From a virus (taxonomy: Duplodnaviria; Caudoviricetes): a stretch of DNA of 41,917 nt. Under the pieces are notes generated by a model. It did not search any database. It was not told the DNA's origin and was given only the letters and a program-made list of their open reading frames with translations. Below, piece after piece: positions 741 to 41,319 of this stretch (its first letter is position 1; each line of letters begins with the position of its first letter). Location of the stretch: IMG/VR virus record IMGVR_UViG_3300049847_000328, positions 1-41,917 of that record. The stretch is one strand, 5' to 3'. Position numbers and translations under genes: made by a program.

Positions 741-771
741 ATAATGCGCTACAGGCAATCACCGCTTATAT
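741..771. repeat. 31-nt element, inverted copy at 39774-39804
   Basis: 27/31 identical to the reverse complement of 39774-39804. Confidence 0.9.
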
Positions 772-1122
772 CTCAATCACTACGTTCTTTAGTGGTAGTA
801 CCATATATAGTCACTTTAGCCTGCTTTAAGTGCCATTAAGTACCTATTTAGCGCGTGTAGCCCAAAAGCGAAACAAGCGTTGGTAGCTAATGATTGCTGG
901 TAGTGAGATTATATGTATAACTAATTAAGTCGTGAATCACCATTAGAGGTGAATCTAACAATTGGTAGAATAGTAGTGGTTATAATTAACGCAATGTATA
1001 ATCAGCGTGTAGTTAAGATTAGGTTATTGTCCCTCACCCTAGAATCAGGTTAATGGTATCCCTTAACTACAGGTATGGCCGCCTTGATATGGGTCGAACT
1101 ATTACGGGCATACTCTACAGCT

Positions 1123-1151: not shown

Positions 1152-1210
1152 TATAAAAATAATAGTTGTTAAATATAATCTATTAATTTATGTTAAATAA
1201 AGGAGATAAA

Positions 1211-1411
1211 ATGTATAAATGTAAATTGATGAAAAAAGAGAAAATAACCAATGGACAAATAAATTATTTAAAAAACCATGGTTATTCAGATTTTGATAAT
1301 ATGTCCAAATATGATGCATTTAAATTAATCCATGAAATTAGTAAACGTATAAAACATAAGGGATGCAATGGACAATTTGCTATAGCTTTAAAAAAAAGAT
1401 TAAAAGTATAG
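1211..1411 (+). CDS. Hypothetical protein
   Basis: AAGGAG RBS before ATG 1211 (preferred over 1190). Confidence 0.7.
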   Translation: MYKCKLMKKEKITNGQINYLKNHGYSDFDNMSKYDAFKLIHEISKRIKHKGCNGQFAIALKKRLKV

Positions 1412-1458
1412 TAATTCCAACCCGTTATAAAATAATTATTCCATATTGCAATTTGGAC

Positions 1459-1485
1459 TAAAGTTTTATAAATAGCCGCCGATAA
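1459..1485 (+). promoter_or_regulatory. Sigma-28 (FliA) promoter
   Basis: Exact TAAAGTTT-N11-GCCGATAA, intergenic, followed by GAGG and ATG 1508. Confidence 0.9.
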
Positions 1486-1540
1486 GATATTATAAGCGAG
1501 GTACAAAATGTTTAAAACATACAAAGATGAAGATTATAAA

Positions 1541-1660
1541 ATGACAGTAGATGGAGTTGAGTACATTTCTACACCAGAATTGGATATGTTTGCTCCAATG
1601 ATGATTTCTGCCTTATTTGTATTTGCTAGCTTATTTGTAACAGCTATTAACTTATTCTAA
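1541..1660 (+). CDS. Small membrane protein (39 aa); in frame with a 10-codon ORF at 1508-1540
   Basis: MTVDGVEYISTPELDMFAPMMISALFVFASLFVTAINLF; C-terminal hydrophobic helix. Confidence 0.55.
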   Translation: MTVDGVEYISTPELDMFAPMMISALFVFASLFVTAINLF

Positions 1661-1669
1661 GGAGTTTAT

Positions 1670-1930
1670 ATGCATTTAGCTAATTGGTTTATAATTGTTT
1701 TAATGCCTGGAGGATGGTTATTAGTTGCAATGTATAAAGTATATACAATGTTTATACAAAAACGCACACATGATACATCCGAGATTAATTATTTATTATC
1801 AAATGTTGTTATGTACCGTAAAGGATTGAGACATAAACCTTACGTTGGTAGTTTTATTAAGTTGACAGATGATATTAGCTATGTTAAGGTATGTGAAGAT
1901 GGATCATTAACAAGGGAGTTTAAATGTTAA
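1670..1930 (+). CDS. Hypothetical membrane protein
   Basis: AAGGAG RBS; N-terminal hydrophobic segment. Confidence 0.75.
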   Translation: MHLANWFIIVLMPGGWLLVAMYKVYTMFIQKRTHDTSEINYLLSNVVMYRKGLRHKPYVGSFIKLTDDISYVKVCEDGSLTREFKC

Positions 1931-2355
1931 GAGTATTATTAGTTTTATTAGCTACTTTAGTTTTAGTTGCATGTGGACGTGCAAGATTTACTGTTACACA
2001 AGTACAACAACAATGTACGACACAACAAGCAAATGGATTGATTAATGTAAATTGTCCAAATGGTGTTAACTATTCATTCCCTGCGCCTACTGATGGTATT
2101 GATGGACAAGATGGTGTTGACGGGCAAAATGGAACTAATGGAATGAATGCTCAAGGAATTCTTGTTGTAGATCCATGTGGTGATAATTTAAATCAAGTTG
2201 ATGAAGTTCTTTTAATCTTCCCTGATAAATCAGTATTAGCTTGGTATCAAGGAGTAGGATTTGTTGTATTAACTCCAGGCGTTATATATCAAACTACAGA
2301 TAATCAGCGTTGTGTGTTTAAAATCGATTCTAATGGTAATGTGAGTTATCCATGA
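1924..2355 (+). CDS. Lipoprotein with short collagen-like G-X-Y repeat
   Basis: Signal peptide with lipobox LVA-C; GIDGQDGVDGQNGTNGMN; several Cys. Confidence 0.8.
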   Translation: MLRVLLVLLATLVLVACGRARFTVTQVQQQCTTQQANGLINVNCPNGVNYSFPAPTDGIDGQDGVDGQNGTNGMNAQGILVVDPCGDNLNQVDEVLLIFPDKSVLAWYQGVGFVVLTPGVIYQTTDNQRCVFKIDSNGNVSYP

Positions 2356-2510
2356 ACAAATTTTTACTTAGACTTAACATAGTTATGGCCGTTATTAATA
2401 TTGTTAACGGCTTAGTATTAGAACGTGCGGATTGTATGATTGTTGCTTTACTAAACATTACTACCGCATATGTTTTAGATAAACATTCACAAAAGAATGA
2501 ATCAAAATGA
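2352..2510 (+). CDS. Small membrane protein (52 aa)
   Basis: ATGA-coupled at both ends; MNKFLLRLNIVMAVINIVNGLVL...; not in ORF track. Confidence 0.65.
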   Translation: MNKFLLRLNIVMAVINIVNGLVLERADCMIVALLNITTAYVLDKHSQKNESK

Positions 2511-2695
2511 GACTTAATATATTAGTAGCAATTTATATGATTATATTTTTTGTAGGATTGTTATTTGCATCATACAATAAAGGATTTAATGATGCGTATG
2601 TATTAGGGTTAGTAGCCCAAGGATTAGGGCTAGATTCATTTGAAAATTACGATATGCCTTATACTAATGTAGATAACCATAAAAAGAAATGGTAG
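2507..2695 (+). CDS. Small membrane protein
   Basis: N-terminal TM helix; ATGA coupling. Confidence 0.7.
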   Translation: MRLNILVAIYMIIFFVGLLFASYNKGFNDAYVLGLVAQGLGLDSFENYDMPYTNVDNHKKKW

Positions 2696-2697
2696 TT

Positions 2698-2805
2698 ATG
2701 CGTAAAATTGATTATATAATAGTGTCTCTTATTGTTACATTACCAATTGTAGCATTACTTTTAATATTTAAACTTTTACAAGATTTATCCTTAAGTTTTA
2801 AATAA
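2698..2805 (+). CDS. Small membrane peptide (35 aa)
   Basis: MRKIDYIIVSLIVTLPIVALLLIFKLLQDLSLSFK; fills the gap. Confidence 0.5.
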   Translation: MRKIDYIIVSLIVTLPIVALLLIFKLLQDLSLSFK

Positions 2806-2817
2806 AGCTGCCGATAA
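2791..2817 (+). promoter_or_regulatory. Sigma-28 (FliA) promoter
   Basis: TTAAGTTT-N11-GCCGATAA followed by AAGGCGG and ATG 2839. Confidence 0.88.
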
Positions 2818-2838
2818 GTATTATGTAAGGCGGTTAAT

Positions 2839-2931
2839 ATGAAAAGAGTTTTTGTAAGTAACAAAGTAAGTCATAAAAGCAGATTAGCTCTTGAACTTAA
2901 AGGATTTACTGTTATAATAGTATTGGAGTAA
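2839..2931 (+). CDS. Small protein (30 aa)
   Basis: MKRVFVSNKVSHKSRLALELKGFTVIIVLE; first ORF after promoter, with RBS. Confidence 0.6.
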   Translation: MKRVFVSNKVSHKSRLALELKGFTVIIVLE

Positions 2932-2933
2932 TT

Positions 2934-3158
2934 ATGAAGGCTATACTAGAATTTAACCTGCCTGAAGAAACTGAATCATATGAACTTGCTATGAATGGAT
3001 GTCATTATCTATTTGCCTTACAAGAATTAGATAATTATTTACGTTCACAATTAAAATATAATGATTCACTTAATGAAGAACAATGTCATTTAATAGAATC
3101 AATAAGAACTAAATTATATGAAGAATTAAATGAACGTGGAGTTACTATAAATGGTTAA
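2934..3158 (+). CDS. Phage hypothetical protein
   Basis: GGAG RBS; MKAILEFNLPE start resembles a common phage hypothetical family. Confidence 0.8.
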   Translation: MKAILEFNLPEETESYELAMNGCHYLFALQELDNYLRSQLKYNDSLNEEQCHLIESIRTKLYEELNERGVTING

Positions 3159-3411
3159 TTTTGCAATTGGTGATAAAGTAAAAGTAACAGTATTACCCCA
3201 AGGCAGCGAAGGGACCGTTTTATCTATACATGATAGATTTTATGTAATAGAATTCATAGATAAACATGGCGAACCATATACTTATGCGTATGAAAAACAT
3301 GAATTAATAAAAGTTGATTCTTATTTTAAATGTGAGTGCGGCGCTGTTTATACTTGGGCACCAAATCAACATTCAACCTGGTGTCCTAAATGGAGGATAG
3401 ATGGCAATTAA
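3151..3411 (+). CDS. Hypothetical protein, SH3-like N-terminus and Cys/His motif
   Basis: FAIGDKVKV...EGTV; CECG...HSTWCP. Confidence 0.7.
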   Translation: MVNFAIGDKVKVTVLPQGSEGTVLSIHDRFYVIEFIDKHGEPYTYAYEKHELIKVDSYFKCECGAVYTWAPNQHSTWCPKWRIDGN

Positions 3412-3772
3412 ATTTGAAGATTGTAAGGTTATGTATAATGGAGAATTACAATACTATATTAATTGGAATTTACTTGTTAGCAACAAATGTGAAAAAAATA
3501 GAGAAGCAATTATTGATACTCATGTTCTTAAATTAACTTTTATTGATATGATTAAAAACAGTACAGATGAAAAAGAAATGAGAGAATTGGCTAAAGATGT
3601 AATGGAATGTGAACGCGAATTACAAAGATTGTGGAAGTTTCATACTGTAGAAGATAGATTTATTAAATTTTGGCTATTACCTAGATGCGAATGTCCATAC
3701 TATGATAATGAAGATAATTATCCAAACGGAAATTATTATATAAAAAACTCGTGTCCGCTACACGGAGGATAA
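3401..3772 (+). CDS. Phage hypothetical protein (possible Zn-binding C-terminus)
   Basis: CECP...CPLHG; GGAGG RBS. Confidence 0.75.
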   Translation: MAIKFEDCKVMYNGELQYYINWNLLVSNKCEKNREAIIDTHVLKLTFIDMIKNSTDEKEMRELAKDVMECERELQRLWKFHTVEDRFIKFWLLPRCECPYYDNEDNYPNGNYYIKNSCPLHGG

Positions 3773-3773
3773 A

Positions 3774-4157
3774 ATGAAAGTTGAAAAAAATAGAAATGTC
3801 ATAACATTTGATGTTGATGATACGCTTATTATTTGGGACGAATTTAGTAGAGATTTAACGTATACAAGCCCGGATAGATTAGTTGTTATTTGTCCTTATG
3901 ATGGTAAACCGTATTCTTTTACAGTACATGAACGACATGTTGCTTTTTTAAAAAGAGAAAAAGCTAAAGGTTCTTTTGTAATTGTATGGTCTCGCAGCGA
4001 AGGTGCCTGGGCAGAAGCAGTATGTAAAGCTTTAAATCTGGAGGATTATGTCGATATTGCAATGTCTAAGCCGACTAAGTATGTGGATGATGTTACTGAT
4101 GTTGATCATATTCTTGGTACCCATTTATTTCTTAATAAAGACGGCCATTCTGTTTAA
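3774..4157 (+). CDS. HAD-superfamily phosphatase
   Basis: Motif I FDVDDTL, motif II VWS, K and YVDD motifs. Confidence 0.8.
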   Translation: MKVEKNRNVITFDVDDTLIIWDEFSRDLTYTSPDRLVVICPYDGKPYSFTVHERHVAFLKREKAKGSFVIVWSRSEGAWAEAVCKALNLEDYVDIAMSKPTKYVDDVTDVDHILGTHLFLNKDGHSV

Positions 4158-4164
4158 TAAAGTA

Positions 4165-4193
4165 TTGACTTATAAGTATAACTATAGTAGATT
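4165..4193 (+). promoter_or_regulatory. Sigma-70-like promoter
   Basis: TTGACT-N17-TAGATT in a gap before GGGGG RBS and GTG 4213. Confidence 0.5.
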
Positions 4194-4212
4194 TGTATAT
4201 GACGGGGGTACT

Positions 4213-4521
4213 GTGAGAGATTATTTAACTTCAGAAGAATACCTTGCATTAACAAATGAACTAAAAGAATTAGTTGAGCGTAAACGTGAACCTGTAACAA
4301 CGCGCGATTTTGCATTTGGTTATGCATATGATGGACATATGTCTGGTGAACCATTTCTACGAATTTATGCTGAGTACTTAATGAAGTACCCAAAAGCTAA
4401 TGTTAAAGATCTACACGCACTATGCTTAGGCTATGGCACAGCAGGTAGCGTAATAGATGAACTTGAAAAACAAGATGATGATTTAGAATTAAAAAAAGAT
4501 GATAAAAAAACTTACCATTAG
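4213..4521 (+). CDS. Hypothetical protein
   Basis: GTG start with RBS preferred over the overlapping 4048 start. Confidence 0.7.
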   Translation: MRDYLTSEEYLALTNELKELVERKREPVTTRDFAFGYAYDGHMSGEPFLRIYAEYLMKYPKANVKDLHALCLGYGTAGSVIDELEKQDDDLELKKDDKKTYH

Positions 4522-4529
4522 GAGGTAAT

Positions 4530-4865
4530 ATGAGTACTAAAAAACAAACGTCAATTGGTCGCCTTAAAACAGTGACTAAGCCAGATGGAACTAGCTTTAA
4601 TGTTCTTGAAATCACTCAAGACATTCAATTAAAACAAAATGATACAGTATATCTTAATGATTATGCTGATAACATTGATTTTTTAGTTGAGTCTGGACTA
4701 ATTGACGCCGCAGTTGGTGCAGAGCGTAAAGTTAATGCTAAACGTACAACAAAGACAGGTACAGTAGAAGAAACTCGTTTTGTTGCTATGCTTCAGTTAG
4801 CTAAACGTGAGCAATCATCAAGTAGCGATTCAAAAAAGGCATCTGGTAGATCAAAAGCTTTCTAA
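4530..4865 (+). CDS. Hypothetical protein (possibly ssDNA-binding)
   Basis: AGGAGG RBS; beta-rich, low-complexity tail ending in Phe; function speculative. Confidence 0.65.
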   Translation: MSTKKQTSIGRLKTVTKPDGTSFNVLEITQDIQLKQNDTVYLNDYADNIDFLVESGLIDAAVGAERKVNAKRTTKTGTVEETRFVAMLQLAKREQSSSSDSKKASGRSKAF

Positions 4866-4879
4866 TAATAGAGGTTTAA

Positions 4880-5452
4880 ATGTCTGAAAATATCAAAGTT
4901 CAAGAACGAACCGATAACAATAGTAATTTTGAAAATTCTGTTGGATGGAACGTAGATGTTAAAAATCGTGTAATCAGAATTACTACAGATATTGACACGG
5001 AGTTATTTGATATTGTAGACGCAGGACTCACGGAGTTAGAGTCAATTTCTAAAAAGGCAATTACTATTAGAATTTCAAGTTATGGCGGCGGAGTTTATGA
5101 AGCTCTTGCCATAATTGGAAGAATGGAAAAAAGCAAGTGTAAAATAATTACCGAGGGCTACGGACCTATTATGTCCGCAGCTACAGCAATACTTGCCGCA
5201 GGTAATGAACGTAGAATGTCAAGACGTGCCTGGTTTATGCACCATGAATCTAGTTATGGAATTGAAGGCCGACACAATGAAATTAAGCATTATGTTAAAC
5301 AACAAGAACGAGAAGAAAATGATTGGGCTAAACTTATGGAAGAACTTACCGGCACCAATAAAAATTTCTGGATCACAGAAGGTAAGAATATTGATAGGTA
5401 TTTCTCAGCACAAGAATGCTTACAATTAAACATTGTAGATAAGTTATTTTGA
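4880..5452 (+). CDS. clpP: ClpP-family serine protease
   Basis: ISSYGGGVYEALAI, catalytic IMSAA, FMHHE, DRYFSAQECL motifs. Confidence 0.9.
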   Translation: MSENIKVQERTDNNSNFENSVGWNVDVKNRVIRITTDIDTELFDIVDAGLTELESISKKAITIRISSYGGGVYEALAIIGRMEKSKCKIITEGYGPIMSAATAILAAGNERRMSRRAWFMHHESSYGIEGRHNEIKHYVKQQEREENDWAKLMEELTGTNKNFWITEGKNIDRYFSAQECLQLNIVDKLF

Positions 5453-5459
5453 GGCAATT

Positions 5460-5975
5460 ATGAGTAAAAAGAAACAACACACACCATTAAAAAAACATCA
5501 ATATAGTAAACCGGTTCAAGACCATATTAGCGATATTGATTATTGGCACAAGCTAAATGAAAAAGATAAAAAGTTTCTAGAACAGTTTATGGATGAATAT
5601 GCAGGTAACAATCATCAAAAATATAGTCAGAAAAAAAGACTACTCAAGACCGATGAACAACAAAAGGCAGCAAGACGGCTTAATAACTCATTTAACCGCG
5701 ATGCTTTTGATGTAGCAAAAAAGACAGTTAATCTTGACTATTCAGAGAATGATGATAAAGTATTTTATAGCAGAGAAAATATCTCTGATTGGATGGAAGC
5801 TTATACGCTTCAAGGTCATAAAGAAGCATTAGATATGATTTTAAGTGATTCATTAGAAGAAATTAAAGAAGCAAATGATGAACGAAGGCAGCGCATTGCA
5901 ATGATAAGATTTTTTATTAGAATGCGTAGATACTTCACACAAGCTAACAAGGAGAAAAAGAATGTCAAAACCTAA
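5460..5975 (+). CDS. Hypothetical protein
   Basis: 171-aa ORF with GAGG RBS, in operon. Confidence 0.75.
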   Translation: MSKKKQHTPLKKHQYSKPVQDHISDIDYWHKLNEKDKKFLEQFMDEYAGNNHQKYSQKKRLLKTDEQQKAARRLNNSFNRDAFDVAKKTVNLDYSENDDKVFYSRENISDWMEAYTLQGHKEALDMILSDSLEEIKEANDERRQRIAMIRFFIRMRRYFTQANKEKKNVKT

Positions 5976-6750
5976 AATAGTGTTCTTAGATATAGAGACG
6001 CTGATGATACCTGAAGAAACACTATCGCGCATTCCAAGTTATGGCGCATATCCTGGTCGTGGGTTTAACGGAACTGTTAGCAGCATATTATGTTTTGGAT
6101 ATAAAATCCAAGGCGAGAAACAGGTTAAATGTATTAACGCTTGGGACTATCCTGGATTTAAAAAGAATCCTAATAATGACAAAGAATTATGTAGAGCAAT
6201 ACATGAAATTCTTAAGGACGCTGATGCAATTGTAACTCAAAATGGTAAACGTTTTGATATTCCTGTAATCAACACGCGACTTGCTAAATATGGTTTACCT
6301 CCCGTTCCAAAATCATTAGCTCATATTGATACAAAAAATGTATTTAAGGCAAATTATGCTGCCTATGATAATAAACTTGATAGCATTGCTAAAACATTTG
6401 GTTGTGAGACTAAATTAGAAAATGGTGGATGGCAATTGTGGATGGATATGTATAAAAACAAAGAGTCATCTAAAAAGCTAATGGAACGTTATTGTAAACA
6501 AGACGTTAATGTTCTTGAGCAAGTCTTTATTAAACTACTACCTTGTATTAAAGGTCTTCCTAACCATAATCTGTTTACTGATGGTACTAAGCGCGTTTGT
6601 CCAAATTGTGGAAGTCATAAATTGCATATTAACGATACGCGAAGATTAAGTACAGGACTATATATTCGCTATAAATGTCAATCCTGTGGTTCGGTAAGCC
6701 GAGATAAAAAACCAACAGTAAAAGCTAAACCTTCAATTGTAAAGGATTGA
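5962..6750 (+). CDS. RNase H-like DEDD 3'-5' exonuclease with C-terminal Zn ribbon
   Basis: FLDIET, QNGKRFD, YCKQDV; CPNCGS...CQSCG. Confidence 0.88.
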   Translation: MSKPKIVFLDIETLMIPEETLSRIPSYGAYPGRGFNGTVSSILCFGYKIQGEKQVKCINAWDYPGFKKNPNNDKELCRAIHEILKDADAIVTQNGKRFDIPVINTRLAKYGLPPVPKSLAHIDTKNVFKANYAAYDNKLDSIAKTFGCETKLENGGWQLWMDMYKNKESSKKLMERYCKQDVNVLEQVFIKLLPCIKGLPNHNLFTDGTKRVCPNCGSHKLHINDTRRLSTGLYIRYKCQSCGSVSRDKKPTVKAKPSIVKD

Positions 6751-6751
6751 T

Positions 6752-7069
6752 ATGTTAAAGAGCGAACGTAAAATATTAGAAGAATTATCTCTTAAAGCAT
6801 TTGGTAAAAAACATCATTATAAAAAGATAATTGATCATGGTCTTTTGTATAGAGACCCAGAAACTAAACAGGCAGCAAGAATACACTTGACACCCGAAGG
6901 TATTAAGTTATACTTAGAAAAAACGATTAAAGTTCGAGAAGATTTTTTAAAAGCAGCAACAGTTTTAAAAGATAAGGAGTTAAATGATGAGTCAAATACC
7001 ACAACCGATACCGAAGGATCAAATAGTAACTCAGAATCAATCGATGAATTTGTCGCAAAACGGTGTTAA
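6752..7069 (+). CDS. Hypothetical protein
   Basis: Directly follows exonuclease; tail overlaps next gene. Confidence 0.65.
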   Translation: MLKSERKILEELSLKAFGKKHHYKKIIDHGLLYRDPETKQAARIHLTPEGIKLYLEKTIKVREDFLKAATVLKDKELNDESNTTTDTEGSNSNSESIDEFVAKRC

Positions 7070-7361
7070 ACACGACCAAGGTAAACCTGATTTAAGTATT
7101 TTATCTTATGGAGCTTTGGCAGAAATTGCTAAAGCTTTTGAATTTGGTGCTAAAAAATATGGTAGATATAATTACTTAGGCGGCATGGAGTGGACTAGAA
7201 TAGGTTCTGCTTTACTGCGCCATACTTACAAATGGCTTTGGGGACAGGATAATGATGATGAGTCTGGTCTACACCATTTAGCTCATGTTGGAGCATGTGT
7301 AATTATGTTGTTAGATTATGTTCTTTTAGGTCTGGGCACAGACAATAGGTATAAAAAATGA
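6984..7361 (+). CDS. DUF5664 dATP/dGTP diphosphohydrolase-domain protein
   Basis: GVKHDQGKP, FGAKKYGRYNY, LLRH, DDESGLHHLAH. Confidence 0.88.
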   Translation: MMSQIPQPIPKDQIVTQNQSMNLSQNGVKHDQGKPDLSILSYGALAEIAKAFEFGAKKYGRYNYLGGMEWTRIGSALLRHTYKWLWGQDNDDESGLHHLAHVGACVIMLLDYVLLGLGTDNRYKK

Positions 7362-7693
7362 AACTTGAAGTGGGTAAACTATATAAAACTAGATCTAAGC
7401 ACTTAGTTAGACTTATAGATAAACGCAGAGTTCATGAGGATGATACTACTAATTATTTTCTTGGTATCATTGAAGGTGGACTTCCAGAGACTTTTTGGTA
7501 TAGTGACACCGGCAGACTATATAATATGGGTATATCGCCGCATGATATAGAGCGTGAAATATTAACTAAACTTGAATTTCAATCTACGTTTTTAACCTCA
7601 AATGGTAGACTTAACGTTGAGCTACCAAAAAAAGAAATTGAAGATCTTTTGGGTCGTAAAGTTAAAATAACTGTAGAGTATGTAAATGAATAA
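7358..7693 (+). CDS. Hypothetical protein
   Basis: MKLEVGKLYKTR start typical of phage hypotheticals; ATGA coupling. Confidence 0.75.
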   Translation: MKLEVGKLYKTRSKHLVRLIDKRRVHEDDTTNYFLGIIEGGLPETFWYSDTGRLYNMGISPHDIEREILTKLEFQSTFLTSNGRLNVELPKKEIEDLLGRKVKITVEYVNE

Positions 7694-8687
7694 GCCAATT
7701 TCATTTTCAGGGTATAAACGATTTATTACCTGTCCAAAGTATTACTACTATCATGATATTAAAGGTGAGAAATCTGATATCGTGAGTTCTGCATTAGTAT
7801 TTGGTACTGCTGTTGATTTAGCATTGAATCATTTACTTGAGTTTAGAAACGAGCCCGAAGCTTTAGGATTATCTAAAGATATAGCAAAAATGCATATAAT
7901 CAATACTAAAATCGATATGTATTTTACCGCAGATTACGACTCTGATTTAGGACTTGATTTGTTGCAATTATATTTAGATGAAAAATCATATAAAGGTGAT
8001 CCTAATGAGCTAATGACAGAATTATTAAATAATCAAAACAAACTTAGTGATAACGAATCATATATTTTAAATAAAGTTGTAAAACATTGTTTAATACAAA
8101 AGGTTGATATTATCCTAAATTCCTATTTTACAAAAGTTCTACCAATTATAGGCAGTGTTGAAACTGTTCAAAAAGAAGTTACTACCGCCGATGGATCGAA
8201 ACGCGGAATTATTGATACTATAATTATCTTAAAAGATGGCAAACGAGTTATTTTTGATAATAAAACATCATCAAGACCATATGAAAAAGATAGTGTTCTT
8301 AAGTCACCACAATTAGCACTATATGCATCTATGGTAAATGCTGATCACGCAGGGTTTATTGTTATGAATAAGCAAATAACAAAGAACCGCAAAAAAGTAT
8401 GTAGCAAATGCGGATACGATGGGTCAGGTACAAAGTATAGAACTTGCCATAATATCATTAATAAAAAGAAATGTGCATCAGAATGGGACGAAACTATTGA
8501 TCCTTATAGTTTTATTCAAATTCATATTGACAAAATACCTCAAATCAATAAGAATCTAATCAATGAAGCTATGGATGATACTATTAAATGTATAAAGAAT
8601 GGTATCTTCCCTAGAAACTTAAATAACTGCTTTAACACATATGGTCAACCTTGTCCATATGTAAAAAAATGCTGGGAGTGCAAGTAA
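7686..8687 (+). CDS. PD-(D/E)XK exonuclease, Cas4/RecB-like
   Basis: SFSGY..F..CP, GIID, DNKTS, QLALY, C-terminal C-x7-CPY-x3-C; internal 4-Cys insert. Confidence 0.88.
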   Translation: MNKPISFSGYKRFITCPKYYYYHDIKGEKSDIVSSALVFGTAVDLALNHLLEFRNEPEALGLSKDIAKMHIINTKIDMYFTADYDSDLGLDLLQLYLDEKSYKGDPNELMTELLNNQNKLSDNESYILNKVVKHCLIQKVDIILNSYFTKVLPIIGSVETVQKEVTTADGSKRGIIDTIIILKDGKRVIFDNKTSSRPYEKDSVLKSPQLALYASMVNADHAGFIVMNKQITKNRKKVCSKCGYDGSGTKYRTCHNIINKKKCASEWDETIDPYSFIQIHIDKIPQINKNLINEAMDDTIKCIKNGIFPRNLNNCFNTYGQPCPYVKKCWECK

Positions 8688-8950
8688 TGTTTAAATCTAA
8701 AAAAGAAACTATAAATAAATATGAAATATTTGTATCAGATATTCTAGGTGTTATATATAACGTTGAATCAATTCTTGCTTCAGGTAAAAACGAAGATGGT
8801 TATTTATTTGAAAGGTATATTGATCATAATATAGACACAAAAATACTTAGTGCTGTTTTAAATAAAGGTATTGAAATTGGTAAAACAAAAATTAATGAAA
8901 ATAATAAATCATTAATAGTTTCATTCAATAACAAGGAGAAAAAGAAATGA
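8687..8950 (+). CDS. Hypothetical protein
   Basis: TAATG-coupled start at 8687 preferred. Confidence 0.65.
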   Translation: MFKSKKETINKYEIFVSDILGVIYNVESILASGKNEDGYLFERYIDHNIDTKILSAVLNKGIEIGKTKINENNKSLIVSFNNKEKKK

Positions 8951-9375
8951 GTGAATTATATAAAAAATTAACGGCAGACTTTCAACCGGAAGCTATGTCT
9001 AAAGATATGTCTCGCGGGTTTGAGTTAACATCAATCAAAGCTCAATATGTTGTTGAGCGATTAAATGAAGTATTTGGTGTTGAAGGATGGAAGGCAGACT
9101 ATACAGTGCAACTCCTTGATAAAGAACAAGGATGTATTGTTAAATGTATTATTATTGCAAATAGTGAAAATGGTGAAATTGTTATTCAGCGCAGCGCATT
9201 TGGTGGATCAGATATTAAAAAGAATATTGGAGACACCATTAAATCTGCTATGACAGATTCATTGTCTAAAGCAGCTTCTCACATGGGTATTGGTAACGAG
9301 GTATTCAAAGGTAAAGTAAAAGTAGGGGGCACTACTTCTGCTGCACCTGCCGCTAAACGCAGTCCTCGTTTGTAA
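8947..9375 (+). CDS. sak: Rad52/Rad22-like single-strand annealing protein (Sak)
   Basis: AQYVVERLNEVFGVEGW and KSAMTDSLSKAASHMGIG motifs. Confidence 0.88.
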   Translation: MSELYKKLTADFQPEAMSKDMSRGFELTSIKAQYVVERLNEVFGVEGWKADYTVQLLDKEQGCIVKCIIIANSENGEIVIQRSAFGGSDIKKNIGDTIKSAMTDSLSKAASHMGIGNEVFKGKVKVGGTTSAAPAAKRSPRL

Positions 9376-9444
9376 GCTCCAAACGTGTCACATACGTTAG
9401 TTGTGAGGTTGTTGCTAACTACTTTTTTTGTTGTTGGAGGCAAA

Positions 9445-10965
9445 ATGAAAATATCTACAGGTAATAATAATACTAATTTTAAACCAGTCGAAATTAACAG
9501 TATTGAAGAATTATGTGAAACTATAACAAAGACTAATTACTCACAGTCTATTTATAAAGATAACTACCGCAATCTTAAGAATTTTTTCTCAGCAGAAATT
9601 ATTGCTGTTGATGTTGATAATGAAAATAAAGGTGATAACCATACTATTGACCAAGCGGTAGAACTATTTAAAGAGTATAAGCATATCATTGCACCTTCTA
9701 GATCGCATCGTAAAGATAAGAACGGTAAAGTTGCGGACAGATTTAGAGTTATTCTTTTTTTAAGCGAACCAATTACTAACGCTAAAGATTTTACGGCAAC
9801 ATGGCATTCAATTCACAAGATTTATCCTGCGATTGATACAGCATGTAAGGATGCAAGTCGTTACTTCTATCCTTCTCCGGAAGTCTACTCTAAAAATCCA
9901 TCAGGTAAATTATGGCCTGTTTCTAAATACACAGAAGAACCACCGGTTCAAACTGATATAGACTCAGTACTTGGTAAAGGCCAATTGGCAGCAATTACAT
10001 TAGATTTCTTACTTAATGGTGCACCGCAAGGTAAGCGCAATGACCGCCTTTTTAAGGCCGCTAAAGACATGCAAGAGCAAGGATACTCAAAGGATGAGTG
10101 TGTTGCTAGGATCAATAAAATGATTCAATCTGGAGGTTCATGGGCGCATAAAGAGCTTGTTACAAGAGACCTTCAAACTATTGATAGTGCATATAACCAA
10201 GATCCAAAGTATAGCAAACGTGATGGTGAATTGACTAAAAACCCAACATTTACGTTTAAAACAGCAAAAGGACTCCTAGAATCAACAGAACAAGTTAATT
10301 GGGTAGTTGATAACCTTCTCACTGAGGGCGGTATGAGCGTTATGGCAGGACCCCCAAAATCAGGCAAATCTACCCTAATGAGACAGTTAGTTCTTGCTGT
10401 TTCACGCGGCGGAGAGTTCTTAGGTCGTAAAGTAAAACCTGGTAAAGTAATCTATTTAGCCCTTGAAGAACAAGAAGGGGTGCTTAAAGATCAGTATAAA
10501 ACTAGTGGACTTACTGAAAATGATAATATGATTATTCATACTGGTGGAGTTCAAACTGAAGATCCAATTCTTGATTTGCGTTCTGCGATATTGGATTTTG
10601 AACCTTCCCTTGTTGTGATTGATACTCTATTTTTATTAATGCAGATTGAATCAATAAATGACTATCGTCAAGTCAACGAGGCAATGGCTAAATTCCGTAA
10701 TCTTGCCCGTGAAACTAATACGCATATTATCACAGTCCATCATACTAAAAAAGATGGCGAATCAACTGGTGCTAATCGTATTCTTGGTTCATCAGCAATT
10801 CACGGAGCGGTTGACTCGGCTTTGATCCTTACCGTTGAAGATAAACGTAGGTTCTTTACTACTTCTCAGAGATTTGGTAAAACATTTTATGATCAAGAGT
10901 TAGTTTTTGATAAAGATACGGCTACTTATTTATTGGGTAATAACAATAAGAATAAGGACTTTTAA
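9445..10965 (+). CDS. Primase-helicase (AEP-like N-terminus, RecA-like RepA-type helicase)
   Basis: DVDN, SRSH, FRVI, PriCT-like GKRNDRLF; Walker A GPPKSGKS, VVIDT, VHHTKK, GSSA; GGAGG before ATG 9445. Confidence 0.88.
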   Translation: MKISTGNNNTNFKPVEINSIEELCETITKTNYSQSIYKDNYRNLKNFFSAEIIAVDVDNENKGDNHTIDQAVELFKEYKHIIAPSRSHRKDKNGKVADRFRVILFLSEPITNAKDFTATWHSIHKIYPAIDTACKDASRYFYPSPEVYSKNPSGKLWPVSKYTEEPPVQTDIDSVLGKGQLAAITLDFLLNGAPQGKRNDRLFKAAKDMQEQGYSKDECVARINKMIQSGGSWAHKELVTRDLQTIDSAYNQDPKYSKRDGELTKNPTFTFKTAKGLLESTEQVNWVVDNLLTEGGMSVMAGPPKSGKSTLMRQLVLAVSRGGEFLGRKVKPGKVIYLALEEQEGVLKDQYKTSGLTENDNMIIHTGGVQTEDPILDLRSAILDFEPSLVVIDTLFLLMQIESINDYRQVNEAMAKFRNLARETNTHIITVHHTKKDGESTGANRILGSSAIHGAVDSALILTVEDKRRFFTTSQRFGKTFYDQELVFDKDTATYLLGNNNKNKDF

Positions 10966-13112
10966 TGTATAACGATAAACTTCTTTATGGTAAAAATTCC
11001 AAGGAAGGAATTGTCTCTATAGAAAATAAAGACAATAAGTTACATATTTATACACATACTGGTCAAGAAATTATTAATTGTGATTACTATATTCTTTATG
11101 ATAAATACCTTGAGTCTTATACTGATGGCAGACTTGAAGGTGTTGGTCAACTGAGATATTACTCTAAGTTTGAATCATCTAAAGAACTTTATGATTTTGA
11201 AACAGTATTAAAATCAAAGGATATTAAGTATTTTAAACCTCGTTCGCCTAGCGAAGGTATGATGCTAAAAGCAGGCTATACACAATATAAAGGAATGAAG
11301 TTTAAAGATCTAAACGTACTAAGTTTCGACTTAGAAACAACCGGAGCATTAATCGATGATAATTCTTATGTTTTGCTTATTAGTAATACTTTCAGGTCTA
11401 GTGATGGCAGCACTGATACTAAGCTCTTTGCTTTTGACGATTATGATAGTCCATCAGATTTTATACGGGACTGGTGTAAATGGGTTCGTAGCAAGAACCC
11501 TGATGTTTTACTTGGTCATAACCTATTTGGATTCGACTTACCTTATCTAAGGCAGTTCTGTAAAAATCAAAATATCGATGGTCTCCATCTTGGTCGTGAC
11601 GCCTCAAAACTACATTACGCACGTAACCCTAGTAAATTCCGTAAAGATGGTTCACAATCCTATGACTACATCAATGTAAATTGTTATGGTAGAGAAATTA
11701 TTGATACAATGTTTTTGGCTTTTAAGTTTGATATTGGACGCAAATATGAATCGTACGGACTAAAACAAATTATTAAACAAGAGGGCCTTGAGAAGGCAGA
11801 CCGTCAACATTACGATGCTTCAAAGATTCGTACAATGTTTACTAATCCTATTGAATGGGCTAAAATTAAAAAGTATGCCGAGCATGACGCAGATGACGCA
11901 CTTGCGTTATTTGATCTTATGGCACCATCTTTTTTCTATTATACTCAAGTTGTTCCTATGTCATTTCAAAACATTATTAACCGCGCGACTGGAAGTCAAG
12001 TAAATAACCTTATGATTAGATCATATATACAAGATGGGTTATCTATTCCATTACCATCAGATACAGAACACTTCCAAGGCGCGGAAGTTATTGGTAACTG
12101 CGGAATCTATGAACATGTGTATAAAGTTGACGTTGCAAGTCTATACCCATCAATTATGCTTAAAGATTCAATTTATCCTGAAGATAAGGATTTTAATGGT
12201 AATTTTTTAAAGATATTAAAGACACTAACAGAAGAACGTTTATTAAATAAAAAGCTTGGTAAAGAAACTGGAGATAGATACTATAAAGACATGGAGCAGG
12301 CACAAAAGATTGTTATTAACTCGGCTTACGGCTTTATGGGCGCGCCTGGTCTTAATTTTAATTATCCTGTCGGGGCGGCAGCGGTCACTCTTGAAGGCAG
12401 AAGAATTCTTAATATAGCACTTAATTGGGCTAAAATTAACAATTTTCAAATTGTAAATGCGGATACCGATTCTATTAGTTTTACTAACGGTCAACATATT
12501 GATCTTCAAAAATGCCTTAATGAACTAAATGAACTGTCAGGTCGTAGTATTACATGGGAAAATGACGGACAATATGAAAAAGTAATAGTAGTAAAATCAA
12601 AGAATTACGTACTTAAACATGAAAAAAAGACCATTATTAAAGGGTCTGGACTTAAAGCAACAATGAAGGAAAAAGCCCTTCAAAAATATATCCGCGAGGT
12701 AATTGATTTATTATTAGAAAATAAAAGTGCATCACTAGTGGAACACTATATGAGTTATGTAAATCAGATCTGTAGTTTGACCGATATTAGTGAATGGTGT
12801 AGTAAAAAGACTATCACTAAAGCAGTACTTGAAGGTACAAGAACTAATGAAACTCGCGTAATGGACGCTGTTGAAGATGTTGAAGGACTACAAGAAGGTG
12901 ATAAGGTCTATGTTTTTTTTGAAACAGTAGATAAACTATCGCAGGATAAAGACTTTAAAGGCGTTTACTCGCGTAAAAAACTATTTGATAAACTATTTAA
13001 AACAATTAAAGTATTTGAAAATATTGTAGATATTAAACAATTCCCGAATTATTCACTTAAAGGGAATCAAAAGAAACTATTAGAACAAAATTTAATATTT
13101 GAAATTGAATAA
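10965..13112 (+). CDS. polB: Family B DNA polymerase with 3'-5' exonuclease
   Basis: FDLET, GHNLFGFD, YAEHD; DVASLYPS, KIVINSAYG, NADTDS. Confidence 0.96.
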   Translation: MYNDKLLYGKNSKEGIVSIENKDNKLHIYTHTGQEIINCDYYILYDKYLESYTDGRLEGVGQLRYYSKFESSKELYDFETVLKSKDIKYFKPRSPSEGMMLKAGYTQYKGMKFKDLNVLSFDLETTGALIDDNSYVLLISNTFRSSDGSTDTKLFAFDDYDSPSDFIRDWCKWVRSKNPDVLLGHNLFGFDLPYLRQFCKNQNIDGLHLGRDASKLHYARNPSKFRKDGSQSYDYINVNCYGREIIDTMFLAFKFDIGRKYESYGLKQIIKQEGLEKADRQHYDASKIRTMFTNPIEWAKIKKYAEHDADDALALFDLMAPSFFYYTQVVPMSFQNIINRATGSQVNNLMIRSYIQDGLSIPLPSDTEHFQGAEVIGNCGIYEHVYKVDVASLYPSIMLKDSIYPEDKDFNGNFLKILKTLTEERLLNKKLGKETGDRYYKDMEQAQKIVINSAYGFMGAPGLNFNYPVGAAAVTLEGRRILNIALNWAKINNFQIVNADTDSISFTNGQHIDLQKCLNELNELSGRSITWENDGQYEKVIVVKSKNYVLKHEKKTIIKGSGLKATMKEKALQKYIREVIDLLLENKSASLVEHYMSYVNQICSLTDISEWCSKKTITKAVLEGTRTNETRVMDAVEDVEGLQEGDKVYVFFETVDKLSQDKDFKGVYSRKKLFDKLFKTIKVFENIVDIKQFPNYSLKGNQKKLLEQNLIFEIE

Positions 13113-34508: not shown

Positions 34509-35711
34509 TTAGTAGTATGTGATACTAGCATTACGTTTAGGTTTAACTAACGGGTCTATACCCCATGCGGCATAACCTAAAGCATCTGATATATGACTCA
34601 ACATAGGATCATCATTATCATGGACTAGTTGCTCTAAATCTTTAATTAAATACTTACACTTAGGGCTTATCCTAATATAATTATATTCAAAAAGCCTGTT
34701 TACGTTGTTTTGTCGGTCTTTTACGTGAGGGTTTTTAAAGGCTAACACATTGAAATTAGCTCGTTTTAGTATCTCATGATCTGTAGTTTGACTACTTGAT
34801 TTTCGTCTATTACCGGTTTCATCGGCAAATACGCTAAACGGTTTACCTGGGTATCTTTTAGAAATTTCTCTAGCTGCCTCAAAAGTATTACTATTTTCAA
34901 GATGAAGTTCGTCAAATATATGAATTTCTCGGCCTCGCCTTAAAAAGAATATAGCACATAACGGATGAACGTTAAAATCCATGCCTATATATAAGTGATC
35001 ATTAGGTAAAATGTCTACTGGTTTAATATGTTTATTCCTATCAAAGGCATAATAGACTGTACCGGAATTAAGGTTAACAAATTCACCATCAAGTTCCTGT
35101 TTTGATAATCTAGAGTCGTATTGTTCTTTAAGCTGCTTAACGTAACTTTCTGGCAAGTTAACCATATTGTCAGTTGTGCGTGAACGAATGACTTCTTTAT
35201 TGTCTGCACTTGTAACAATGAAAAAATCATACAACCAATTAAACCCATTTGGTGTTGTTGTACCCTTCCATTGGCAAGGACCTTTTTTGTCCCGTATACG
35301 ACCAATCAAAACATCAAATCCTTCTTTTTTATAGAAGGCACACTCATCAGACCAAGCCCATCCAACTTCTATACCGCGAAGTGCATCATACTTCTCCATT
35401 GATGCGCAATAAATAATGGTGTCGTTAATTTCTATGTATGAGTTATTAATATTATACTTGTAGCTAATACCTAATTGGTCACATAAATTAAAAAATGATA
35501 CAAGAGTTGCTTTTTTAAGCTGAGAGTATGTATTGGCAGTTATAAGACCTGGGGTATTTGGATATTTATGGATCATCATGATTGCCCATATTGCACCAGC
35601 AAATGTTTTACCTGACCCGAGTCCACCACAAAACAATACTCTATCTTTAAGCGATTCAACAAAGTCTAGTTGACTTATTGAAAGCTCTAACTCTTTATTT
35701 TGTCTCGTCAT
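34509..35711 (-). CDS. terL: Terminase large subunit
   Basis: GGLGSGKT, WAWSDE, TTTPNG, GMDFN, HISDALGY. Confidence 0.96.
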   Translation of the reverse strand: MTRQNKELELSISQLDFVESLKDRVLFCGGLGSGKTFAGAIWAIMMIHKYPNTPGLITANTYSQLKKATLVSFFNLCDQLGISYKYNINNSYIEINDTIIYCASMEKYDALRGIEVGWAWSDECAFYKKEGFDVLIGRIRDKKGPCQWKGTTTPNGFNWLYDFFIVTSADNKEVIRSRTTDNMVNLPESYVKQLKEQYDSRLSKQELDGEFVNLNSGTVYYAFDRNKHIKPVDILPNDHLYIGMDFNVHPLCAIFFLRRGREIHIFDELHLENSNTFEAAREISKRYPGKPFSVFADETGNRRKSSSQTTDHEILKRANFNVLAFKNPHVKDRQNNVNRLFEYNYIRISPKCKYLIKDLEQLVHDNDDPMLSHISDALGYAAWGIDPLVKPKRNASITYY

Positions 35712-36111: not shown

Positions 36112-36156
36112 GTGGAACCTCCGTTGGCACTACTGAATATATTCCAAGGGGTAAAT

Positions 36157-37888: not shown

Positions 37889-38020
37889 TAACGTATCTTT
37901 TAAAGCACTTATACCTGTTAGGATTCTTCCTGAATCACTGTAATTATCATTAAGAACACATTGTTGTAGTTCATCTTGAAGTTGTTTTAGTTGTTTTTCT
38001 AAATCGTTAATTGTCATCAT
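37769..38020 (-). CDS. Hypothetical coiled-coil protein
   Basis: ATGA-coupled with AAGGA RBS; 3' end overlaps the convergent gene by 120 nt. Confidence 0.55.
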   Translation of the reverse strand: MMTINDLEKQLKQLQDELQQCVLNDNYSDSGRILTGISALKDTLLESYRNAYTKYVIRSVCNANVDVIKNTTANASAPLRVVK

Positions 38021-38493
38021 TTAGTATTCCTTTTAAATAACTCAACACACTGTTTAATAAATAAACCATACATTAATATCTGTTCTTCTGTATATCTTTG
38101 GTCTTTACCAATTTCTTTAAATCCTAATTCCCATTCAGATACTGGCATATAAATACAACCAATTCTTAATGTACCATCTGGTGTATAATACGCAACATGT
38201 TGTTCATAATTAAAAATCATTGTGCCTGTTTCGCGTAAGTTCGCAAAGCTTAAGTCCGCAAAGCTTAAGTCCGCAGAGCTTAAGTCCGCAAAGCTTAAGT
38301 CCGCAAAGCTTAAGTCCGCAGAGCTTAAGTCCGCAGAGCTTAAGTCCGCAGAGCTTAAGTTCGCAAAGCTTAAGTTCGCAGAGCGTAAGTTCGCAAAGCG
38401 TAAGTCCGCACGCTCGCCGTTTTCTTCTCCACGTACCCACTTACCATGTTTATCTAAAATATCTTTTAATTCTTGTTCATTTATTATTCTCAT
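38017..38493 (-). CDS. Pentapeptide-repeat protein
   Basis: About 12 A(D/N)L(S/R)(S/F) repeats after HGKW...GERADL. Confidence 0.93.
   Translation of the reverse strand: MRIINEQELKDILDKHGKWVRGEENGERADLRFANLRSANLSFANLSSADLSSADLSSADLSFADLSFADLSSADLSFADLSFANLRETGTMIFNYEQHVAYYTPDGTLRIGCIYMPVSEWELGFKEIGKDQRYTEEQILMYGLFIKQCVELFKRNTK
38233..38410. repeat. 15-bp tandem repeat (about 12 units)
   Basis: gcttaagtccgca(a/g)a units encoding the pentapeptides. Confidence 0.95.
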
Positions 38494-38707: not shown

Positions 38708-39009
38708 TATTTATTTCCTCCATTTTGATATTCATCAACATATGATTCAAATAATTCAAACGTTGTGCTATCCATTTCATCCGATGTCTTGCCTTTATGA
38801 TCAGAAGTAAATCCATTTTCTGGATTATATTTATAATGCATCCAATATTTGGTATCTATGTTGAGTAGGTCTCCATTTTCTTTATAGTTAAGAGATAAGC
38901 ACATAATAATTTCATGCTCCTCTCCGCGGCTATCTGTATAACTAAAAGATCTAGTATCTAAAACTTCATGTGTCATTCCAAAATAATTATCTGTATCTGT
39001 TAAGCTCAT
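38707..39009 (-). CDS. Hypothetical acidic protein
   Basis: AAGGAG RBS directly after sigma-28 promoter. Confidence 0.75.
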   Translation of the reverse strand: MSLTDTDNYFGMTHEVLDTRSFSYTDSRGEEHEIIMCLSLNYKENGDLLNIDTKYWMHYKYNPENGFTSDHKGKTSDEMDSTTFELFESYVDEYQNGGNK

Positions 39010-39027
39010 ATTTATCTCCTTGTTATA

Positions 39028-39663
39028 TTACTTATCGGTAGGTTGTTTTAAAACTTTAATGTTTTTTAAAAAATAATCTATAAACATGCCTGTATATATT
39101 GCAGTAGATTGACTACTGCCGCTTAATGAGATTCCATATGCTTCTTTATCTTTACCATCTATAAAGATATCAACAGGTGTACCATAATTAGACGATTTTT
39201 GTGTATTTGCAACAACAACTATTCTTTTGTCAGCACACGCAGGATAATAATCACATTTTTTTGATAGACTTCTACTATCATTACCGCTTGCGGCAATAAA
39301 AATACCACCGCTATCTAAGAATTTTTTAATAAGGCGAGTTTCTTCTTTATCTTCATAAACACCACCTCCGCTATAGTTAATAATGTGTACTCTATGGTGT
39401 ATAGCATCCTGTATAGCTTTTATTGTTGCTCTATTATCTTTAACTAAAAAGACTTTATATATATAAAAACAATAGTTATTTGAATTTGCATATTTTTGAA
39501 TTAAACCTGTAACATTTGTTCCATGACCATGAGTGTCATTTATATTTTGGTTATACTTAACACATGTTGGTAAGGAATTAAGGTATTCAAGTTTAAATCC
39601 GGTGTCCATAACAGCAACCTTTAGTTGCGCAAAACTTAGTGACATAAATAACATAATAAACAT
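39028..39663 (-). CDS. Secreted subtilisin-like (S8) serine protease
   Basis: Signal peptide; VMDTG, HGHGT, ASGND, SGSSQST; GGAGG before ATG 39663. Confidence 0.88.
   Translation of the reverse strand: MFIMLFMSLSFAQLKVAVMDTGFKLEYLNSLPTCVKYNQNINDTHGHGTNVTGLIQKYANSNNYCFYIYKVFLVKDNRATIKAIQDAIHHRVHIINYSGGGVYEDKEETRLIKKFLDSGGIFIAASGNDSRSLSKKCDYYPACADKRIVVVANTQKSSNYGTPVDIFIDGKDKEAYGISLSGSSQSTAIYTGMFIDYFLKNIKVLKQPTDK
39032..39058 (-). promoter_or_regulatory. Sigma-28 (FliA) promoter
   Basis: TAAAGTTT-N11-ACCGATAA on the minus strand, then AAGGAG and ATG 39009. Confidence 0.88.
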
Positions 39664-39675
39664 ACTAACCTCCAC

Positions 39676-39969
39676 AGTTAGAATCTACTATATATTTAAT
39701 TTTGGCGCAATATTTAGCTGTACCGTGTTGCATTGTGAAACAGGTTAGATTTAAAGCAAGCGTAGCTTTAGCTATATAAACGGTAATCGCCTGTAGTGCA
39801 TTATATTGGATTGCATGGTAGTACTTAGTAGTGACTTACCCAGATTGAGTAGTCAAATACCCATTATGGGCAGACCTATCCTTAAGTGTGCCTTTCGCTA
39901 CAGGCACTTGACGGCCTGCGCTCACAACAAATTGGCTTGGTTAGATTAGTGGAGCTTAATCGCTCCATA
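39676..39969 (-). ncRNA. Candidate structured 5' leader or small RNA
   Basis: About 290 nt without a credible ORF, behind a consensus promoter; local hairpins; complementary to 741-829. Confidence 0.45.
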
Positions 39970-39975
39970 AGGTCA

Positions 39976-40005
39976 ATTATAATCATGTGTATCAAAACGT
40001 GTCAA
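39976..40005 (-). promoter_or_regulatory. Sigma-70 promoter
   Basis: TTGACA-N18-TATAAT on the minus strand; spacer contains TTTTGATACA. Confidence 0.8.
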
Positions 40006-40334
40006 GTATTATTTGCTCCAAATGGCAAAATTTCGTTATCTTTAGTCTCTTGTCCATATTGTTCGCGTGTTCTGTACGATTTTTTTCGTACAATCGGTGT
40101 ATTATTTTGACGCATAACCTTGCGAATTTCTAATGGAATGTTTACGTATAAAGCCATAAGTTCAAGTCTAGTTTTAACTTTATAGAATTTATATATTAGA
40201 CTCAATCTTGCTTTAAGTGTTTTGACCTTAATTCCTAGGACCATTGCTACTACGTGTAGGTCTTTACCACTAAGTAATGCGTGTAGAGTTTGTAATCTAA
40301 GTTCTTTTGATATTTCTATATTGTTTCTTCTCAT
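40002..40334 (-). CDS. LuxR-type HTH transcriptional regulator
   Basis: LLSGKDLHVVAMVLGIKVKTLKARLSLIYKFYKVKTRLEL matches the LuxR C-terminal pattern. Confidence 0.78.
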   Translation of the reverse strand: MRRNNIEISKELRLQTLHALLSGKDLHVVAMVLGIKVKTLKARLSLIYKFYKVKTRLELMALYVNIPLEIRKVMRQNNTPIVRKKSYRTREQYGQETKDNEILPFGANNT

Positions 40335-40395
40335 ACCCTATAATTGCCTGATTCTGGCAAAAACACAATACGTTGTATCACATTGGTACCTACGG

Positions 40396-40424
40396 TTGAC
40401 AGTTTATAATTTACTATATACTAT
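40396..40424 (+). promoter_or_regulatory. Sigma-70 promoter
   Basis: TTGACA-N17-TACTAT upstream of AAGGAG and ATG 40466. Confidence 0.7.
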
Positions 40425-40465
40425 GTACTCTATAAGCGTACATTTGTACGTTAAAAGGAGACAAA

Positions 40466-41317: not shown

Positions 41318-41319
41318 TT

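Follow-up and report, generated by a model that had tools for sequence, protein, structure and literature searches.

The window, the whole 41,917-nt stretch analysed here, is a near-complete tailed-phage genome (IMG/VR record IMGVR_UViG_3300049847_000328) whose ends overlap for ~290 nt at 95–98% identity, giving a circle of ~41.6 kb. Its replication genes, encoding a primase-helicase, a family B polymerase and a Rad52-like protein, occupy the plus strand (1190–13112), and its packaging and virion genes occupy the minus strand (36111–13166). The two largest non-coding gaps of the genome, at 1–1189 and 39664–40001, are the two regions considered here. The shorter gap precedes a minus-strand gene for a subtilase (Peptidase_S8; 39028–39663), which encodes 211 amino acids with a hydrophobic N terminus and heads a short gene run. 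Between the two elements lie a 110-amino-acid minus-strand ORF with a weak LuxR-type helix-turn-helix (HTH) match (40002–40334; GerE E = 0.14) and small plus-strand ORFs belonging to the early genes (40467–41762). No integrase or site-specific recombinase was recognised among 60 ORFs scanned, and no antirepressor was recognised in the window. The phage is apparently lytic. Its DNA was best represented in a freshwater sediment run, and among the six runs listed there was no RNA run with the phage. Organism-named homologues of the subtilase are S8 peptidases of the Bdellovibrio group (33–36% identity), which gives a hint, and only a hint, of the host.

Other features of the genome were recorded alongside. 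The end overlap (1–291 versus 41657–41917) comprises two alleles with a 30-nt indel between them, and X2, one of two strain contigs described below, has a third allele. A 6-bp hairpin at 193–211 is perfect in one end-overlap allele and is kept in the other by two plus-strand G–U pairs; the early genes of the plus strand probably end there in their 3′ direction. The 290-nt overlap did not show the doubled depth of a direct terminal repeat in X2 (6.4 versus 5.1–5.6). The interval 40335–40466, from which the HTH-like ORF and the small plus-strand genes diverge, holds a 10/12 sigma-70 site and palindromes, one of 14 bp at ~40438–40451, and is a possible operator. The early genes include those for a ClpP-like protease (4880–5452), a dATP/dGTP diphosphohydrolase domain (6984–7361) and a collagen-like protein (1924–2355), and in locus L216 too, genes for ClpP, a subtilase, a diphosphohydrolase and a collagen-like protein occur together. 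One of the genes that follow the subtilase in its run encodes a pentapeptide-repeat protein (38017–38493, minus strand) and has a 15-bp tandem array.

The two gaps are complementary to each other over a long range. As an earlier note on this DNA had reported, and as our recount agrees, 741–771 is the reverse complement of 39774–39804 at 27/31 positions and 819–829 that of 39751–39761 at 10/11, with transitions accounting for all five differences; the 2.6-kb spacing that the note gave across the circle junction is also correct, in line with the overlapping genome ends. The 31-nt pair is the top ungapped long-range inverted match of the genome both without G–U pairs (score 19, runner-up 17) and with minus-strand G–U pairs counted (26.2, runner-up 18.8). 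Its self-BLAST E value of 0.003 is equalled by one promoter repeat, the CCGATAAG motif, and none of 300 shuffled versions of the short region attained its score. We regard chance as a scarcely credible explanation of the match. Colinear similarity extends beyond the blocks, over 707–791/39836–39752 (score 58 versus a maximum of 48 in 200 shuffles), and the pairing possibly arose as an inverted copy of ~110 nt. A weaker match that had been drawn between 252–277 and 39932–39954 proved to be at chance level (best residual alignment score 33 versus 30 ± 4 in 100 shuffles).

An inverted repeat may represent either complementary RNAs or same-sense duplicates, which makes strand the key question. When both regions are read from the minus strand, four of the five differences become G–U pairs, leaving 30/31 and 11/11 positions paired; on the plus strand only one of the five does so. 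We denote the arms of the long minus-strand RNA d (741–771, 31 nt) and c (819–829, 11 nt), and their respective minus-strand partners in the subtilase leader d′ (39774–39804) and c′ (39751–39761). The segment between c and d (772–818, minus strand), predicted to be looped out, contains short hairpins, one of them with a minus-strand G–U pair, and the d′–c′ spacer (39762–39773, minus strand) contains a 4-bp hairpin. The predicted cofolding gain is −32.4 kcal/mol for the minus/minus combination, the remaining three combinations reaching −15.6, −15.5 and −3.0, and minus/minus binding is −29.0 versus −7.2 ± 3.0 in 40 shuffles. In the ensemble cofold, 29/30 pairs of helix d have a probability of at least 0.96, and the pairs of helix c have probabilities of 0.69–0.88. 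The arms would also be nested in order within a single minus-strand transcript (c, d, loop, d′, c′). A competing cis helix between 741–761 and 891–912, likewise proposed in the earlier note, does appear in the minus-strand fold of 680–1152, but two of its pairs are better on the plus strand, where alone they form G–U pairs.

Three further candidate elements were tried and rejected. A third helix (842–849/39738–39745) occurs in one minimum-energy fold with an ensemble probability of 0.01, and one of its pairs is broken in the strain contig X3. A third copy of the core motif (39896–39906) has two changes in X3 and hence was not counted as essential. A permuted 'splint' (829–835 and 856–861 versus 39898–39910) consists of 6–7-nt matches at chance level and is broken by X3 changes unless these are compensated.

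For the short region, the strand is indicated by a perfect sigma-70 promoter on the minus strand (TTGACA-18-TATAAT, 39976–40005, 12/12), in which none of the listed strain changes falls. From this consensus, a 306-nt subtilase leader is expected at 39664–39969 on the minus strand or, alternatively, a separate RNA of ~240 nt. Its sole minus-strand ORF encodes a polar product of 28 amino acids and begins at the first bases of the expected transcript. The leader has a closing stem (39915–39928/39732–39744), and the predicted duplex with the long RNA lies 88–141 nt upstream of the AUG (39663) of the subtilase gene. A local hairpin is predicted over the ribosome-binding site (RBS), and adding the long RNA leaves it unaltered; a refolding switch is therefore not predicted. 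The earlier note had proposed an RNA–RNA switch.

For the long region, the strand evidence comes from two motifs that face it on the minus strand. One, TGGAATATATT at 1123–1133, is a candidate late promoter; an identical second minus-strand copy stands upstream of the small terminase gene, at 36136–36146, in the gap separating this gene from the amidase gene, where loci L132 and L133 have a related form. For this 45-nt gap, the longest exact match elsewhere in the genome is at 1123 (11 nt, same orientation). A colinear relative, G004 (~30–58% protein identity, about 45%), has a 1.1-kb gap at the same place as the long region, and the longest match of its terminase/amidase gap is at 36671 (12 nt), likewise heading the long region. 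The gap match thus heads a long non-coding region in the same orientation in 2/2 records with that region; the same matching on G003, L134 and L135 gave nothing interpretable. As exact matches of 11–14 nt arise from five other late gaps too, the promoter motif counts by position and orientation alone. The terminase/amidase gap of G004 also has two copies of the core of the motif word, inverted relative to each other, which is the arrangement that divergent promoters would give.

The other motif, TTAACAACTA (1163–1172, minus strand), is the best match in the genome to a motif at the packaging-operon head of other subtilase-bearing phages. The survey that yielded it took in the upstream side of 33 hand-picked subtilase loci out of 129 fetched, 17 of which had a loose TTAACA[AT]; the matrix was built from 11 TTAACAA sites, after removal of a duplicate locus, of the five loci that had TTAACAT only and of one site at L036, which has two. 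In the five loci with genes listed, large minus-strand genes follow the TTAACAA site in a run, and by eye we took them for terminase and portal genes. With this matrix, position 1172 on the minus strand ranks top of all positions in the window (19.3 bits, next 14.2), and no strong site was found at operon heads in G004 or G003. Taken together, the terminase-gap motif and the 11-phage matrix make a late minus-strand transcript from ~1117 likely. It would be a non-coding RNA of ~0.9 kb (200–1117), both ends being estimates, and may continue further; the longest minus-strand ORF with an ATG start in this interval encodes 26 amino acids. An alternative sigma-70-like promoter (TTCACG-17-TATAAT, 908–936, minus strand, 10/12), which alone does not exceed chance, would give a shorter RNA from ~901.

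Given the 12/12 promoter on the short side and the motifs facing the long one, both regions are likely to be transcribed from the minus strand, as the earlier note had held. The fold of the long region is somewhat stronger on the plus strand (z −2.18 versus −0.66 and −1.02 on the minus strand), and individual stems divide: 741–761/891–912 and 683–696/879–892 have G–U pairs on the plus strand, and 201–213/827–839 and 256–264/270–278 favour the minus strand. Both strands of the long region may be transcribed. No terminator-like site was found in 1–1600 or 38900–41917.

Two other candidate promoter elements came to light. Eleven larger phages (L003:6790–6910, L004, L006, L007, L013, L014, L036, L083, L086, L087 and L092) share a conserved minus-strand unit upstream of the subtilase gene, consisting of TTAACAA..TA followed by ~90 nt that carry GCAA, a hairpin that varies and GTTACGC. 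This unit heads an operon divergent from the subtilase gene and looks like a late promoter with a structured leader; Rfam gave no family at the gathering score (L003, L083) and a best E value of 0.22 (L086). In the window, the motif AAGTTTT...CCGATAAG occurs in three copies directly upstream of genes (1451–1486 and 2783–2842 on the plus strand, 39006–39056 on the minus strand). It is present in L014 too and is likely to be a phage promoter.

The short region is covered by contigs from two other studies, X2 and X3 (one contig per strain, depth 5–8). For X3, 18 of 19 contig differences are listed; the X2 comparison is limited to these listed changes, with X2-only ones outside the table. Among the listed differences, X3 differs from the window at 5 of 42 block positions, and all five substitutions keep minus/minus pairs with the window's own long element: four turn a Watson–Crick pair into G–U and one repairs the single mismatch. 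Four of the five disrupt plus/plus pairs. Under the substitution spectra of the strain comparison, five compatible changes out of five have p = 0.003–0.005 if neutral, and p = 0.04–0.05 given that they are transitions. X2 has four of the five. Transversions number 0/5 inside the blocks versus 4/6 in the flanks (p = 0.06), and substitution density is not lower in the blocks (5/42 versus 6/84 in the flanks, p = 0.50). Two of the block changes (39796 and 39797) fit a cis helix with 39896–39905 as well, and X3 breaks this cis partner of d′ twice. Outside the blocks, the X3 change at 39739 preserves the closing stem of the leader by pairing with a bulged C, and that at 39767 lies in the hairpin loop of the d′–c′ spacer. 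At 8/9 variable block positions, the base in the long minus strand is precisely one able to pair with both alleles. The X3 alleles are a test independent of the discovery, in which they had no part, and, together with the promoter-motif evidence on strand, they support minus/minus RNA pairing. Across the subtilase gene, the divergence of X2 and X3 from the window is 12–17%, against 2–4% upstream of ~39850; the subtilase module and the 3′ half of the leader (39000–39830) look like a swapped cassette.

Near-complete relatives of the phage are represented in the protein collection. In G004 there is no duplex comparable to that of the window, either near the long region or genome-wide, though the long region and its motif are present. 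The pairing therefore seems to have been added, within one lineage, to a late non-coding region that is older. Searches with the subtilase, terminase, ClpP, HTH and primase proteins or with sequence patterns yielded no relative that has both elements. The subtilase searches returned 0, then 80 and 49 loci (25–45% identity) with no credible match to either element, and the terminase search returned 80 loci, of which the closest two, L132 and L133 (about 90%), stop short of the region. The remaining protein searches gave 2 loci (ClpP), 0 (HTH) and 19 + 2 (primase), and the pattern scans gave 0, 1 and 0 matches, the single one (L222) being coding and unrelated. The long gaps of 18 other subtilase loci have no common sequence, the 7 that were scanned lack a long inverted match, and cultured phages gave short chance matches only. 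Sequence homology between the long regions of the window and G004 was considered and rejected: its score of 54 versus a maximum of 49 in 100 shuffles comes from an AT-rich alignment at odds with the global one. As these alignments are AT-rich and inconsistent, we claim only position and promoter motif as common to the two. Elsewhere in the same relative, at L219:14790–15085 (G004 34790–35085, plus strand), a TTGACA promoter lies inside a 38-nt palindrome and is followed by ~230 nt of hairpin-rich non-coding sequence and then by small genes; this stretch has a fold z score of −0.14 and no Rfam match. A literature search of titles and abstract openings, with subscription journals and supplements outside its scope, found nothing on this element or phage group.

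OOP RNA of phage lambda is cis-encoded and fully complementary to its target. It promotes RNase III degradation of cII mRNA, according to the available text of PMC12197685, and shares with the phage pair an antisense RNA directed at a phage mRNA, with RNase III decay proposed in our case; OOP is a small RNA, unlike the phage pair, which is trans-encoded with G–U pairs. A closer likeness is to IstR-1/tisB, in which a 21-nt duplex far upstream of the RBS leads to RNase III decay and standby-site block, with kin in Escherichia coli in shoB–OhsC, zor–Orz as well as dinQ–AgrB (PMC4147584, available text). As that source presents the system, it is characterised by 20–30 complementary nt in a long 5′ UTR, at a distance from the RBS, and the phage pair has this if the leader is as the promoter consensus suggests: a separately encoded RNA with one long stretch complementary to a long 5′ UTR, far from the RBS, the complementarity being 21 nt in IstR-1/tisB versus 31 + 11 nt in the phage. 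Set against the same account, the phage target is a 211-amino-acid subtilase rather than a small hydrophobic toxin, the loci lie 2.6 kb apart on the same strand rather than as divergent neighbours, and the antisense segment would lie inside a 0.9-kb late transcript. C4 antisense RNA of phages P1 and P7 is about 77 nt long, is processed by RNase P, serves immunity and pairs through short loops at the target RBS (PMC5320573 and PMC12197685, available text). Going by these descriptions, the phage RNA would resemble C4 in its predicted action in trans on an mRNA of its own phage through two complementary blocks, with which the strain alleles are compatible, but its arms (31 and 11 nt) are long, contiguous and away from the RBS, 88–141 nt upstream of the AUG. 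The C4 family model, with three stem-loops in about 77 nt, was unmatched in the Rfam search, which gave no gathering-score match in the window and none at E up to 10 in 1–1300 or 39600–40500.

Long non-coding transcripts are also described from other phage genomes: GOLLD and ROOL, large RNAs of unknown function (bioRxiv 10.1101/2024.12.08.627333), and lnc001 and lnc002 of phage K (PMC9241854), in both cases from the available text, in which no trans partner is described. The inferred long RNA of the window is like these in kind, but it has no Rfam match, no nearby tRNA and weak fold scores. Membership of GOLLD/ROOL was rejected on the lack of an Rfam match and a long-region z of −1.02 in the window and +0.43 in G004. 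Of the other classes considered, two-piece tmRNA was rejected with 0 genes from ARAGORN (a tRNA-like acceptor and tag frame were sought), and a group I intron with no Rfam match and with words like the group I R and S motifs, found by eye, that leave no room for P4–P5. A reading as RNase P was dropped, and a crRNA:tracrRNA system was rejected with no spaced array and no Cas effector among 60 ORFs. Because the defining features of IstR-1/tisB and of C4 are not all present, the pair stands outside both families; it would work most like these two and is a candidate variant of phage trans-antisense control.

The long-range complementarity itself is real, and RNA–RNA pairing is its probable meaning. 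The repeat could instead be a pair of same-sense duplicates that never meet, a reading absent from the earlier note: ~110 nt of the long region would have been copied and inverted before the subtilase gene, each copy being read locally (plus strand at 741, minus strand at 39804) as a cis element, the partner of a third RNA or a relic. The colinear similarity beyond the blocks fits such a history, transitions alone would suit any common partner, and the genome offers a precedent in the CCGATAAG promoter motif, an equally strong inverted repeat; the plus-strand fold and stems of the long region and the plus orientation of its flanking genes point the same way. We nonetheless find this rather unlikely, given the pairing of the long minus strand with both alleles at 8 of the 9 variable positions, the two minus-strand promoter motifs and the lack of a common cis structure, the partner of d′ at 39896–39905 being broken twice in X3. 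Read as DNA, the sites could be the ends of a 2.6-kb invertible segment, as the earlier note had suggested in the alternative, or protein binding sites, for example of the HTH protein. Such sites would account for the inverted geometry, and the phage encodes a Rad52-like annealing protein and an HTH-like ORF between the sites; yet no site-specific recombinase was recognised among the 60 ORFs, and both strain contigs span the short block and show neither a joint nor a loose end there (contigs drop rare variants, so that rare inversions would be invisible). Moreover, transitions at 9/9 differences with one G–U polarity are not expected of DNA sites, and we consider this reading highly improbable and an invertible switch unsupported.

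If the pairing is real, the long RNA might be the target rather than the regulator. An early sigma-70 RNA could mop up late transcripts that arise by leakage and so keep them from extending, as antisense, through the early genes at 40467–41762, or a read-through late transcript could fold c–d onto d′–c′ and so enclose 2.6 kb that RNase III would cut out, much as processing stems work in rRNA. The same pairing evidence applies here, and the nested arms, the lack of a terminator-like site, a binding that leaves the RBS structure unaltered and the leader's own closing stem, maintained in X3, would all suit it. Against it, the perfect promoter of the short RNA makes cis folding unnecessary, G004 has a late-facing long region without such a partner and read-through is without support, so that we hold this reading to be quite doubtful. 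A stable two-piece structured RNA, with early short and late long strands joined by helices c and d for a function of its own, would draw on the hairpin in each looped-out spacer, which would make a multi-way junction, on the suitability of G–U tolerance to a structural role and on GOLLD and ROOL as precedents for large phage RNAs. It is very unlikely, however, in view of the absence of an Rfam family, the weak fold scores of the two pieces (z −1.0 and −1.25), the third-helix probability of 0.01, the missing duplex in G004 and a near-perfect 31-bp helix that would itself be a likely RNase III substrate. Either the two-piece structure, which would come into being only when the two expression phases overlap, or the clamp excising a 2.6-kb gene-bearing loop from the late transcript might serve as a timer, in which a late RNA meets an early RNA made 2.6 kb away; a lytic phage would then use a kilobase late RNA, positionally conserved in its group, that docks through a multi-way junction. 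This, too, seems to us a doubtful proposal.

Functional minus/minus pairing of some kind is, in our estimation, reasonably probable. Within it we tentatively favour, as a possibility still short of probable, that the long late RNA acts in trans on the subtilase leader as an antisense RNA and shuts it off. A long non-coding RNA would be transcribed from the candidate late promoter near 1125, the motif of which two phages have both in the terminase gap and at the start of the long region, and would meet the 306-nt leader made from the sigma-70 consensus promoter, pairing with it over 31 + 11 bases. The duplex, with which the leader alleles of the strains are compatible, would mark the subtilase mRNA for cleavage by an RNase III-type nuclease or hinder ribosome loading, and the exported protease and the genes behind it would probably be switched off late in infection. 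RNase III cuts helices of this sort, 31 bp long with a single mismatch, and it is this, together with the IstR-1/tisB precedent, that leads us to prefer late shut-off.

Among the antisense RNAs described from phages, most are short, with ribosome-binding sites as their place of action in the choice between lysis and lysogeny. The weight of the present case is limited in that it is lineage-specific so far and based on one genome and the alleles of one strain. If the shut-off reading is true, an apparently lytic phage makes a late RNA of kilobase size that engages a distant leader through 42 nt of pairing, and entry into the late phase would be coupled to the shut-off of an accessory exported protease. 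The pairing would also give a first handle on a late-promoter-driven long non-coding region that two phages with ~45% protein identity have at corresponding positions.
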